A DNA stretch of 64,000 nucleotides, from assembly GCF_048403405.1 (NCBI RefSeq), contig NZ_CP183129.1. One strand, written 5' to 3'. A program made the position numbers and the translations under genes. The notes below the pieces were generated by a model. That model did not search any database. It had not been told where the DNA came from and saw only the letters and a program-made list of their open reading frames with translations. The stretch's first letter is position 1; every line of letters starts with the position of its first letter. Of this stretch, positions 14,622 to 17,273 are shown in pieces. Origin of the DNA: Escherichia coli (lineage in GTDB: Bacteria; Pseudomonadota; Gammaproteobacteria; Enterobacterales; Enterobacteriaceae).

Positions 14622-17273
14622 ATGGATACGCCGATGCCAGAACATTCTTTTCTCCGTTTACGGGGGCTTTCGTGGTGGATTGCTCTGGCAATTTCTGGAA
14701 GTCCATTTAATGCCCTGGCAGACGATACCATTCAGTTTGATGGCCGATTTCTTGATTTAAAAGGCAATACCAAAATTGATTTGGGCCGTTTTTCGCAAAA
14801 AGGCTATGTAGAACCGGGAAAATATAACTTACGCGTTCATGTAAATAATCAGCCGTTACCTGACGACTACGATATCTACTGGTACGCAACTGAAAACGAT
14901 CCGAATAAATCATATGCCTGCTTATCGCCAGAGCTGGTTGCCCAGTTTGGTCTGAAGGAAGATATTGCAAAGAATTTGCAATGGATCCGCGATGGTCAGT
15001 GTCTGAATACGGCACTTTTAGCAGGTACAGAAATTAGCGGCGATTTAGGCCAGTCTGCACTCCTTGTTTCTGTACCGCAGGCTTATCTGGAATATACCGA
15101 CAGCGAGTGGGATCCGCCTTCGCGCTGGGATGACGGTATCCCTGGGCTTATTGCCGATTACAGTATCAACGCGCAAACCCGGCATGAAAATGGGGGTGAT
15201 GACACTAACGACATCAGCGGTAATGGTACGGTCGGCGTTAACGTTGGGCCGTGGCGCTTACGAGCTGACTGGCAGAGCGATTATCAGCATACCCGCAGTA
15301 ACGATGACGGCGACACTGACGATAGCGGTACGCAAAAAAACTGGGAGTGGAGTCGTTACTACGCCTGGCGCGCCTTGCCGTCATTAAAAGCCAAACTTTC
15401 GCTGGGCGAAGATTATCTCAACTCCGATATTTTTGATGGCTTCAGTTACATTGGCGGCAGCATCAGTACCGATGATCAAATGTTACCGCCAAACCTGCGC
15501 GGCTACGCCCCCGATATTTCAGGTGTTGCACACACTACCGCTAAAGTGACCGTAACCCAAATGGGCCGTGTCATTTACGAAACCCAGGTACCCGCAGGTC
15601 CATTCCGCATCCAGGATATTGGCGACTCCGTCTCTGGCACGCTGCATGTCCGCATTGAAGAACAAAACGGCCAGGTACAGGAATACGACGTCAGCACGGC
15701 GTCCATGCCGTTCCTGACTCGCCCCGGCCAGGTGCGTTACAAAGTGACAATGGGGCGTCCACAAAACTGGGACCATCAGGTTGCAGGTAGCTTCTTCTCG
15801 GGCGGCGAGGCATCCTGGGGGATTGCCAATGGCTGGTCGCTCTACGGCGGTGCGTTAGCCGATGAAAACTACCAGTCGGCGGCGCTGGGCCTCGGTCGTG
15901 ACCTGGCGCTGCTAGGCGCGTTAGCGTTTGATGTCACTCACTCTCGTGTTCAACTCGACGATAACAGCGTGTATGGCAACAAAACGCTGGACGGCAACTC
16001 TTATCGCGTCAGCTATGCCAAAGATTTTGATGAACTCAACAGTCGGGTGACGTTTGCTGGATACCGCTTCTCTGAAAAAAACTACATGACCATGAGCGAG
16101 TATCTGGATGCGAACGACGACGACCGGGCGCGCACCGGTAACGACAAAGAGATGTATACGGTCACCTATAACCAGAACTTCACGGATGCGCGCGTTTCGG
16201 TCTATCTCAACTATTCCCACCATACCTACTGGGATCGCCAGGATCAGACCAACTACAACATGATGCTTTCTCATTATTTCAATTTAGGAAGCCTTCGCAA
16301 CCTGAGCGTTTCTCTGACCGGTTATCGCTACGAATACGATAAAAGTGCCGACAAGGGTGTTTATCTGTCCTTAAGTTTGCCGTGGGGCGACAACAGCACT
16401 ATCAGTTACAACGGCAACTATGGCAGCGGTGCCGACAGCAATCAGGTGAGCCTGTATCACCGCATTGATGACGCCAGCCACTACACGTTAAGCGCCGGAA
16501 CCAGCGAAAACCACAGCAGCGTGGATGGCTACTACAGCCACGATGGCACTCTGGCAAAAGTGGATCTCAGTGCTAACTACCATGAAGGGCAATACACCTC
16601 AGCAGGGATCTCTTTACAGGGCGGGGCAACGCTGACCGCTCATGGCGGGGCACTGCATCGTACACAAAATATGGGCGGCACACGTCTGTTAATCGACGCT
16701 GATGGTGTTGCTAATGTGCCGGTTGAAGGTAATGGTTCCGCCGTTTATACCAACATGTTCGGCAAAGCGGTGGTGGCAGATGTGAATGATTACTACCGCA
16801 ACCAGGCTTATATCGATTTGAACAAACTGCCGGAAAACGCTGAAGCTACAAAATCAGTGGTTCAGGCAACGCTGACGGAAGGCGCTATTGGCTACCGTAA
16901 ATTTGCGGTAATCAGCGGTGAGAAGGCGATGGCAGTGCTGCGCTTGCAGGATGGCAGCCATCCGCCATTTGGGGCGGAAGTGAAAAACGATAATCAACAA
17001 CAAGTAGGGTTGGTTGATGACGAAGGTAATGTTTATCTGGCAGGCGTTAAACCGGGTGAACATATGACCGTTTTCTGGGAGGGTGAATCTCACTGCGATA
17101 TCAGCCTGCCAGACCCGTTACCGAATGACCTGTTCAATGGCTTGTTGTTGCCATGCCAGCAAAAGGGGGGAAGTTCTCCCGTCATACCGCATGATATTCA
17201 ACCCGTCATTCAGGAGCAGACACAACAGGTGACACCAATGGAACCGCCGATGTCTGTTTCATCGAACCAATAA
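14622..17273 (+). CDS. yfcU: Fimbrial outer-membrane usher, intact
   Basis: Single uninterrupted 883-aa ORF of usher size between the subunit and chaperone genes. Confidence 0.85.
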   Translation: MDTPMPEHSFLRLRGLSWWIALAISGSPFNALADDTIQFDGRFLDLKGNTKIDLGRFSQKGYVEPGKYNLRVHVNNQPLPDDYDIYWYATENDPNKSYACLSPELVAQFGLKEDIAKNLQWIRDGQCLNTALLAGTEISGDLGQSALLVSVPQAYLEYTDSEWDPPSRWDDGIPGLIADYSINAQTRHENGGDDTNDISGNGTVGVNVGPWRLRADWQSDYQHTRSNDDGDTDDSGTQKNWEWSRYYAWRALPSLKAKLSLGEDYLNSDIFDGFSYIGGSISTDDQMLPPNLRGYAPDISGVAHTTAKVTVTQMGRVIYETQVPAGPFRIQDIGDSVSGTLHVRIEEQNGQVQEYDVSTASMPFLTRPGQVRYKVTMGRPQNWDHQVAGSFFSGGEASWGIANGWSLYGGALADENYQSAALGLGRDLALLGALAFDVTHSRVQLDDNSVYGNKTLDGNSYRVSYAKDFDELNSRVTFAGYRFSEKNYMTMSEYLDANDDDRARTGNDKEMYTVTYNQNFTDARVSVYLNYSHHTYWDRQDQTNYNMMLSHYFNLGSLRNLSVSLTGYRYEYDKSADKGVYLSLSLPWGDNSTISYNGNYGSGADSNQVSLYHRIDDASHYTLSAGTSENHSSVDGYYSHDGTLAKVDLSANYHEGQYTSAGISLQGGATLTAHGGALHRTQNMGGTRLLIDADGVANVPVEGNGSAVYTNMFGKAVVADVNDYYRNQAYIDLNKLPENAEATKSVVQATLTEGAIGYRKFAVISGEKAMAVLRLQDGSHPPFGAEVKNDNQQQVGLVDDEGNVYLAGVKPGEHMTVFWEGESHCDISLPDPLPNDLFNGLLLPCQQKGGSSPVIPHDIQPVIQEQTQQVTPMEPPMSVSSNQ

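Follow-up and report, generated by a model that had tools for sequence, protein, structure and literature searches.

Intact YfcU usher in a complete, deeply diverged yfc fimbrial operon of Escherichia coli

In 2013 Wurpel et al. counted the yfc locus of Escherichia coli among the core-associated clusters, intact across genomes (PMC3559732), and a later study examines YfcU as an assembled usher (PMC11014939). The K-12 MG1655 annotation marks yfcU (b4661) as a pseudogene, and its older split naming as yfcT/yfcU persists in the literature, as in 'yfcOPQRSTUV' (PMC8174762). The K-12 pseudogene has long been on record, and the intact yfc as the usual state is already described. A second described form of the locus, for which strain 1435 serves here as the representative, is the target of the yfcV reaction in the vat/fyuA/chuA/yfcV PCR and is referred to below as the UPEC-marker allele. 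Among more distant systems, the P-pilus usher PapC (7lhg) is the closest solved structure to the usher analyzed here, and the best-scoring named NCBIfam relatives of the accompanying subunit and chaperone belong to Salmonella Stf.

We analyzed a 64,000-nucleotide stretch of an E. coli chromosome (contig NZ_CP183129.1 of assembly GCF_048403405.1), hereafter the window. Between its sixA and smrB genes lies the yfc operon, complete with seven genes in the order yfcV-U-S-R-Q-P-O: besides the usher gene there are a gene for a PapD-like chaperone, four for PF00419 subunits and one for a DUF2544 adhesin. All seven genes encode full-length Pfam domains. The order fadI-fadJ-sixA-[seven genes]-smrB-prmB-aroC is that of K-12, and the flanks are 94–100% identical to K-12. 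The features of the locus are as follows.

13323–13983, + strand: AT-rich sixA–yfcV leader and regulatory region by composition, 661 bp, 29% GC
13334–13372, + strand: sixA intrinsic terminator by sequence reading and folding, stem AAGGCCCG...CGGGCCUU followed by a U-run
13564–13592, + strand: candidate sigma-70 promoter, TTGGGT-17-TATAGT, aligned with the K-12 yfcV promoter TTGAAA-17-TATAGT
13984–14550, + strand: yfcV, major fimbrial subunit, 188 aa; Pfam Fimbrial PF00419 at full length, E 4e-18
14559–14582, + strand: 10-bp hairpin directly 3' of the yfcV stop; fold −16.8 kcal/mol, z −3.4
14622–17273, + strand: yfcU, usher; maximal ORF 883 aa, probable start at 14634 giving 879 aa
16362–16364, + strand: TAT (Tyr581), aligned in the usher alignment with K-12 amber codon 579, inside the beta-barrel Usher domain
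17293–18042, + strand: yfcS, periplasmic chaperone, 249 aa; PapD_N and PapD_C, best NCBIfam match StfD
18017–18565, + strand: yfcR, minor fimbrial subunit, 182 aa from the RefSeq start; Pfam Fimbrial; the exchangeable tip module begins with this gene
18562–19032, + strand: yfcQ, minor fimbrial subunit, 156 aa; Pfam Fimbrial
19029–19553, + strand: yfcP, minor fimbrial subunit, 174 aa; Pfam Fimbrial
19555–20403, + strand: yfcO, putative tip adhesin of the StfH/YfcO family, 282 aa; Pfam DUF2544, E 7e-79

The usher frame holds 883 codons and zero internal stops in both the ORF list and the translation, which bears out the first-pass annotation in describing one uninterrupted 883-aa ORF. The protein itself probably begins at the second Met, at window position 14634. 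This codon is the RefSeq start of the same gene in strain TUM14771, lines up with the K-12 yfcU start in the alignment, and has a Shine-Dalgarno-like run, GGATGGA, 7–13 nt to its 5' side. The usher Pfam domains occur in order and at full length (PapC_N PF13954 at residues 38–184, Usher PF00577 at 201–761 and PapC_C PF13953 at 772–828), with the PF00577 match spanning profile positions 3–549 of 549. The NCBIfam model NF011812 matched over its entire length with 1794 bits (cutoff 972), and the next model reached 1117 bits, under its own cutoff. PapC aligned to usher residues 34–842 with an E value of 2.6e-221; in comparison with PapC, the window usher carries a 37-residue Pro/Gln-rich tail past the match. 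We read the product as a complete PapC/FimD-type chaperone-usher pore, which by homology would assemble a surface fimbria.

Alignment of the window usher with K-12 yfcU revealed one in-frame TAG, at codon 579, as the sole lesion of the K-12 gene. The K-12-type pseudogene TAG is absent from the window usher, in which the aligned codon is TAT. In commensal strain 4/2-1 yfcU is intact, and its TAC in place of the K-12 TAG is the only difference across 2646 nt. The exact 61-mer containing the TAG was present in 363 of 5426 complete genomes; eight of these carriers were sampled for strain identity, and all eight were K-12-type, mostly named laboratory derivatives. These comparisons identify the codon-579 TAG as a single-base TAC-to-TAG mutation private to the K-12 laboratory lineage. 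Every non-K-12 reference checked (042, BL21(DE3), O157:H7, strain 1435, G12 and E2348/69) has an intact usher annotated, and a yfcV homologue was found in 5386 of the 5426 complete genomes. At least 1000 public contigs encode the exact 879-aa protein of the window. Because the amber is confined to the K-12 lineage, the non-K-12 ushers are intact and the exact protein is this widespread, the intact usher is, judged from sequence, the ancestral, wild-type state and the species norm, not a peculiarity of the strain.

These results qualify the K-12 comparison on which the first-pass annotation had drawn. The K-12 copy is indeed a pseudogene and the window copy is intact; the contrast that this implied is misleading, since the amber is private to a laboratory lineage. 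The comparison also missed that the entire operon in the window is a different, deeply diverged allele and not the K-12 allele with its stop repaired. Forced expression of K-12 Yfc raised adherence, according to a secondary citation of Korea 2010 in PMC6033998. If that holds, the amber may leave K-12 function partly in place, and the contrast with K-12 is weakened further.

The K-12 operon, yfcOPQRS(T)UV, resembles that of the window in its sixA–smrB site, its seven genes and their order, similar gene sizes, the usher family, an AT-rich leader of about 600–680 bp, the yfcV ribosome-binding region and the hairpin after yfcV. The block as a whole is nevertheless another allele. Between window and K-12 the usher is 76% identical in nucleotides and 81% in amino acids, YfcV 67% and YfcS 84% in amino acids, and the tip proteins are less similar still (yfcR 52%, yfcQ 49%, yfcP 55% and yfcO 46% in amino acids). 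The diverged block is sharply bounded by the sixA terminator and smrB, and synonymous divergence between usher allele classes is saturated (dS ~2). The UPEC-marker allele shares the locus and organization and has an intact usher, and its amino acid identity to the window is 77% for the usher, 73% for YfcV and 50% for YfcO. The possibility that the window carries this allele was ruled out: the yfcV primers ACATGGAGACCACGTTCACC and GTAATCTGGAATGTGGTCAGG, both exact in strain 1435, have no site within 3–4 mismatches in the window operon. The forward primer stands beside 'yfcV' in published papers. The reverse primer is the sequence we take to complete the pair, for which the perfect match to strain 1435 is the only validation.

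A different pattern emerged with EPEC E2348/69. Its leader, yfcV, usher and chaperone are 97–100% identical to the window in nucleotides, with the usher at 99.9% in amino acids, and its tip module is a different cassette (34–75% nucleotide and 51–57% amino acid identity) from about 17,950–18,050, where the recombination breakpoint lies, to about 20,400. By alignment, the window yfc block is a deeply diverged mosaic allele that belongs to neither the K-12 nor the UPEC-marker type, and the assembly module (V-U-S) and the tip module (R-Q-P-O) appear to have separate histories. The nearest 25-kb matches to the window were 98.6–98.7% identical; going by the strain names, these may be ST38-type, the window itself containing none of the MLST loci.

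The AT-rich leader of some 600 bp pointed out by the first-pass annotation is real. Past the sixA terminator it comprises 608 bp with a GC fraction of 0.275 (0.29 for the 661-bp spacer), compared with 0.507 for the whole window, and the lowest 300-bp GC of the window, 0.243, falls in and around the spacer (region 13251–14050). The terminator, whose fold of −19 kcal/mol is weak by shuffling (z −1.9), forms the upstream boundary of the regulatory region of yfc, and identity to K-12 collapses just 3' of sixA. Three diverged alleles have all retained a low GC fraction here (0.29, 0.32 and 0.26), even though little of their sequence can be aligned, window and K-12 being 40–58% identical over most of the leader. 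The islands conserved across alleles include the −10 of the K-12 promoter, and the yfcV ribosome-binding region is shared as well. The K-12 yfcV promoter, which comes from genomic SELEX (PMC3946193), is located at 10031–10059 of our K-12 locus sequence (L001). The −10 hexamer TATAGT and the following ATATTATATCG are conserved in the leader alignment. A transcript starting downstream of this hexamer (13587–13592), as predicted, would have a 5' UTR of about 390 nt. A generic sigma-70 and terminator scan of 13200–14700 gave counts no higher than those in shuffled sequence and left the candidate promoter unscored; it also overlooked the sixA terminator and the hairpin after yfcV, and was dropped as evidence.

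In K-12 the yfcV/sixA spacer is listed as an H-NS-bound 'promoter island' on the basis of the Kahramanoglou and Oshima data sets (PMC3661553) and is marked HNS in the SELEX work (PMC3946193). Together with the AT-rich composition of the window leader, this makes H-NS-type silencing a reasonable inference. Several other elements were sought in the window. A fimS-like invertible switch in the leader was set aside, as only weak inverted repeats were present (18 nt, 78% complementary, 195 nt apart) and no recombinase gene lay nearby. Matches with at most two mismatches to TCGATAAATT, which we take to be an H-NS motif, had a density of 4.9 per kb in the leader and 1.06 per kb window-wide, the former representing three sites only. 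Unlike the P pilus, the leader has no papI/papB-type regulator genes: the search for such ORFs in it returned low-complexity, AT-driven frames of 25–35 codons. Scanned against Rfam, the whole window gave a single hit, a tRNA (3036–3107), and none in the yfc leader.

The hairpin after yfcV has counterparts at the corresponding position of the K-12 and strain-1435 alleles, where the base changes are compensatory. Its probable role is as a partial terminator or transcript stabilizer, setting how much major subunit is made relative to usher. In the mechanism we propose, transcription would begin in the AT-rich leader, probably at the promoter aligned with that of K-12 yfcV, and would be held low by H-NS-type silencing; the hairpin would limit read-through into the usher gene. 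The usher itself, by its sequence, comprises an N-terminal chaperone-subunit docking domain, a barrel of the 24-strand type with a plug, and C-terminal domains. As expected from its homologues PapC and FimD, the YfcS chaperone would deliver subunits to the usher, which would polymerize YfcV onto a tip of YfcR, YfcQ and YfcP with the YfcO adhesin. The assembly scheme is carried over from the PapC and Stf systems. The best NCBIfam match of YfcV is StfA, under the cutoff of that model, and RefSeq names the yfcO product 'StfH/YfcO family fimbrial adhesin'; the tip adhesin is of the DUF2544/StfH family, in contrast to the PapG type of the P pilus.

We consider it very probable that the window between 13.3 and 20.4 kb holds a complete wild-type Yfc operon, Stf-like and PapC-related, at its usual site, with an ancestral intact usher, in the form of a diverged two-module allele, and that the K-12 lesion is laboratory-confined. 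An error of assembly or sequencing that makes a truly damaged frame look open is scarcely credible. No evidence of such an artefact was found at the usher, and in TUM14771, the one near-identical genome examined, an independent complete sequence has a 100% identical usher and two mismatches in 14,652 nt over window positions 8622–23273 (99.986%); a further argument is that 335 complete genomes match the full usher length at 99% identity or more, besides the contigs with the exact protein. A more substantial alternative is that the frame is open and the operon is nevertheless decaying or functionally dead, a cluster recently made cryptic by inactivating missense changes or by a promoter that no longer works. 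Wurpel et al. call Yfc fimbriae cryptic under laboratory conditions (PMC3559732), the −35 of the aligned promoter is poorer in the window (TTGGGT) than in K-12 (TTGAAA), and disruption does occur in this class: one sampled genome has an IS2 inside this usher allele. Of 26 genomes sampled at 90% identity or more, however, 25 have a single usher feature, and dN/dS between allele copies of the usher is 0.013–0.067 (0.013 against E2348/69 and 0.061 against G12), which indicates strong purifying selection on the usher; the six other yfc genes range from 0.07 to 0.26 against G12. The full-length domains throughout, the widespread identical protein, and the conservation of the regulatory islands and the hairpin across alleles with saturated synonymous sites also argue against a dead operon, which we judge to be very unlikely. 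The suggestion of the first-pass annotation that the operon could be functional is plausible in light of the intact domains in 7 of 7 genes and the low usher dN/dS.

The extent of divergence raises another explanation, namely that a fimbria of a different type horizontally replaced Yfc at sixA–smrB and that the comparison with K-12 yfcU is not one of equivalents. The low identity of the usher and of the tip subunits to K-12, the saturated dS, the abrupt shift in identity at the block edges and the failure of the published yfcV marker primers are what such a replacement would lead one to expect. Against it, gene order, number and sizes match those of K-12, the usher fits the same NCBIfam subfamily end to end and well over the cutoff, and the leader islands, ribosome-binding region and hairpin are common to the K-12 allele. 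Under the scheme of Wurpel et al. (PMC3559732), which types by usher phylogeny and locus position, both are one type: the window operon lies between sixA and smrB, and its usher groups with YfcU by NF011812 score and 81% amino acid identity. Furthermore, the K-12, O157, UPEC and window usher classes are roughly equidistant (77–90% in amino acids), which suggests old alleles of one locus, not one foreign replacement. We regard replacement as unlikely and retain the reading of a wild-type Yfc operon in a diverged allele. The case for calling the window and K-12 fimbriae the same comes from the position of the locus and the family of the usher, and a shared receptor is no part of it, since the ushers are 81% identical and the tip proteins about 50%.

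The mosaic of leader plus yfcV-U-S on one side and yfcR-Q-P-O on the other is directly observed. A broader interpretation, which we offer tentatively and hold to be somewhat doubtful, is that yfc is a two-module cassette of ancient classes reshuffled among lineages; the presumed driver would be diversifying or balancing selection acting on receptor specificity or antigenicity. The specificity of the window fimbria would then differ from those of the K-12 and UPEC-marker types, and the marker PCR would be blind to the window class and to other non-UPEC classes. The selection and the functional difference belong to this interpretation.

Outside the laboratory lineage of K-12 almost all E. coli carry an intact YfcU, and finding one is of little consequence in itself; K-12 is the exception, and 'intact relative to K-12' should not be taken as a gain. 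Of more practical weight, the yfc alleles are too diverged for probes, primers or antisera based on K-12 or CFT073, which will miss the window allele, and strains with this allele would probably score as yfcV-negative in UPEC typing PCR despite a complete operon. Usher and chaperone stay in place when the tip module is swapped, a point that bears on any assignment of receptor specificity to 'Yfc fimbriae' as one entity.

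The window carries fadI, fadJ, sixA, seven same-strand genes, smrB, prmB and aroC, an order identical to that in K-12. The products of the seven genes were assigned by Pfam as follows, with a RefSeq name for the last.

YfcV: 188 aa, fimbrial subunit
YfcU: usher (PapC_N 38-184, Usher 201-761, PapC_C 772-828)
YfcS: PapD-type chaperone
YfcR, YfcQ and YfcP: three more fimbrial subunits
YfcO: DUF2544; named StfH/YfcO family adhesin in RefSeq

NCBIfam NF011812 covers the usher end to end (1794 bits, cutoff 972), and among solved structures PapC comes closest (7lhg; E 2.6e-221, residues 34-842). 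The locus is a complete Yfc/Stf-type chaperone-usher operon, a relative of the P-pili system. Past the PapC structural match, usher residues 843-879 (17160-17270) form a 37-residue Pro/Gln-rich C-terminal tail, which is included in the NF011812 profile and well conserved in the K-12 allele, with PVIQEQTQQVTP invariant.

The usher had been described in the first-pass annotation as one uninterrupted 883-aa ORF, and this holds: the window ORF listing gives a single plus-strand frame with an ATG start at 14622..17273, and no internal stop was found in its translation. The first ATG lacks an upstream purine-rich run; the second, at 14634, has GGATGGA 7-13 nt upstream and aligns with the K-12 YfcU start. 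The equivalent of 14634 is also the RefSeq start in strain TUM14771, yielding an 879-aa protein (WP_001114066.1). The usher is 100% identical in TUM14771, whose sequence across window 8622-23273 shows 2 differences in 14,652 positions, and the exact 879-aa protein occurs in at least 1000 contigs of the public collection, where clustering at 90% identity groups it with a total of 1723 members. The TUM14771 identity and these contigs therefore establish the open frame as real and reproducible.

The first-pass statement that the K-12 usher is a pseudogene was also right. MG1655 yfcU (b4661) is so annotated, and the old split naming persists as 'yfcOPQRSTUV' (PMC8174762). Within its 2646-nt frame the sole in-frame stop is a TAG at codon 579, which in the alignment proposed earlier falls opposite TAT (Tyr581, 16362-16364) inside the barrel domain. 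The yfcU of human commensal strain 4/2-1, annotated as an intact CDS, differs from that of K-12 by one base, C versus G at nt 1737 (TAC versus TAG). Of 5426 complete genomes, 363 contain an exact match to a 61-mer centred on the K-12 TAG; the remaining 2674 genomes matching this K-12-type allele segment differ inside it. Seven of eight sampled carriers (ER1709, MG1655, Dam/Dcm, KMS2001, JM109, TP6-1, TUM22766 and M24FEP-TDT) are laboratory strains by name or description, and TP6-1 (host listed as Homo sapiens, 4.68 Mb) we take to be K-12-derived too. The lesion is private to K-12, a laboratory-lineage mutation. The K-12 stop at codon 579 is an amber, and read-through could occur in supE derivatives of K-12, JM109 and DH5alpha among them. 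Together with the increased adherence that PMC6033998, citing Korea et al. 2010, reports for force-expressed K-12 Yfc, this means that the 'pseudogene' may keep some function in certain laboratory strains.

Ushers are annotated as intact in 042, BL21(DE3), O157:H7, strain 1435, G12 and E2348/69, and a yfcV homologue is found in 5386 of 5426 complete genomes. Wurpel et al. 2013 (PMC3559732) reported yfc as core-associated and as the sole such cluster intact in all genomes they examined. An intact usher is the wild-type state and species norm, with K-12 the outlier; the intactness seen in the window is real and nothing unusual.

The window operon is a different allele rather than a repaired K-12 one. 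Its usher shares 76% nucleotide and 81% amino acid identity with K-12 yfcU. In a sliding comparison with K-12 the flanks are 94-100% identical, and identity drops abruptly to 40-82% from ~13,300, just after sixA, to ~20,450, just before smrB (amino acid identity V 67%, U 81%, S 84%, R 52%, Q 49%, P 55%, O 46%). At least four classes occupy the locus, namely the K-12, O157, strain-1435 and window types, the last found at 95% identity or more in 555 of 5426 genomes for yfcV and usher alike. High nucleotide diversity in yfc genes and trees discordant with MLST were reported by Ren et al. 2016 (PMC4850163), so the broad picture of this polymorphism was already known.

The allele is itself mosaic. 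The leader, yfcV, usher and chaperone of EPEC E2348/69 are 97-100% identical to the window in nucleotides (usher 99.9% aa). In contrast, nucleotide identity is 34-75% from ~17,950-18,050 to ~20,400, and YfcR/Q/P/O share 51-57% of residues, which puts an abrupt recombination breakpoint where yfcS meets yfcR (~17,950-18,050). The window tip module, yfcR-Q-P-O, is found at 95% identity or more in 314 genomes and a relative at 88.8% identity in ~1000, of which the sampled strains look like lineages carrying K-12-type ushers. In rows H76-H92 of the usher comparison, K-12 homology ends near usher nt 2543-2555. The tip module and the assembly module (leader and yfcV-U-S) therefore recombine independently.

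Nei-Gojobori dN/dS for the usher was 0.058 against K-12, 0.067 against strain 1435, 0.061 against G12 and 0.013 against E2348/69, with dS between classes of ~2; the other six genes gave 0.07-0.26 against G12. These ratios show strong purifying selection on the usher throughout, which counts against cryptic decay. Disruption is sporadic, with IS2 inside the usher in 1 of 26 sampled genomes of the window class. The window operon is plausibly functional.

The AT-rich leader of about 600 bp noted earlier is confirmed. Between sixA and yfcV lie 661 bp with 29% GC, or 608 bp with 27.5% past the sixA terminator (13334-13372), against 50.7% for the window. Each of the three alleles compared has low GC (0.29, 0.32 and 0.26 over 661, 680 and 558 bp), and the sequences are largely unalignable. 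The K-12 spacer is a 489-bp 'promoter island' that is listed as bound by H-NS in a pair of ChIP data sets (PMC3661553, Table 1), and genomic SELEX placed in it an RpoD promoter, TTGAAA-17-TATAGT, marked 'HNS' (PMC3946193). This promoter maps to 10031-10059 of the MG1655 locus (L001), and a five-allele alignment sets it opposite TTGGGT-17-TATAGT at 13564-13592 in the window. Conserved there are the -10 hexamer followed by ATATTATATCG; further short conserved islands are CACnCCAaAGAATA, TCAnTGGCT and the ribosome-binding region. That H-NS silences the window allele, as proposed earlier, would be a sensible reading of its composition and the K-12 data. In other strains yfcV responds to TosR (PMC5956150) and BolA (PMC4337573) overproduction.

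Directly after the yfcV stop codon, 14559-14582 folds into a 10-bp stem (-16.8 kcal/mol, z -3.4). A hairpin lies at the equivalent place in K-12 (L001 yfcV-yfcU spacer) and in the strain 1435 locus (L007 8565-8650), with compensatory substitutions, and keeps 10-11 bp across three alleles with saturated synonymous sites. Judged by other chaperone-usher operons, it is probably a transcript stabiliser or attenuator; it would stabilise the major-subunit transcript, attenuate read-through into the usher and so set the subunit-to-usher ratio.

Several features lie elsewhere in the window.

73-1569: beta-helix protein, beside the integrase and tRNA gene
1714-2907, minus strand: phage-type integrase
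3036-3107, minus strand: tRNA gene adjoining the integrase
5213-6987: AT-rich segment of ~1.8 kb between mlaA and fadL, absent from strain 1435
5346-6635, minus strand: 429-aa ORF in that segment, with no Pfam match
31891-32784, minus strand: 297-aa ORF matching the T6SS VasI family (PF11319, E 4.5e-25)
34018-35259: prophage gpD-like hub
35285-36469: prophage tail sheath
37553-40369: prophage tape-measure protein
41619-42581 and 43675-45777: prophage tail fibres
46303-47199: prophage baseplate J

Positions 1-3107 resemble one end of a prophage or island located at a tRNA gene; among complete genomes, the best matches to 1-25000 begin only at ~1644. At the mlaA-fadL position K-12 carries yfdF. 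The VasI-matching ORF stands alone beside flk in an AT-rich stretch (32151-33250), next to a myovirus-type (contractile-tail) prophage at ~34,000-64,000 whose gene set gives the impression of a P2-like phage. In the K-12 order, pdxB, usg and truA would come next at the prophage position.

The divergence of yfcV bears on its use as a marker. The forward primer of the published UPEC-marker pair co-occurs with 'yfcV' in three papers. Strain 1435, which carries the UPEC-marker type, matches forward and reverse primers exactly, and no site for either was found in the window or in K-12. A strain with the window yfcV (13984-14550) would probably count as yfcV-negative under the vat/fyuA/chuA/yfcV scheme despite a complete operon. 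What the analysis adds is descriptive only: a third yfc allele, mosaic and deeply diverged, which would escape the standard yfcV marker PCR.
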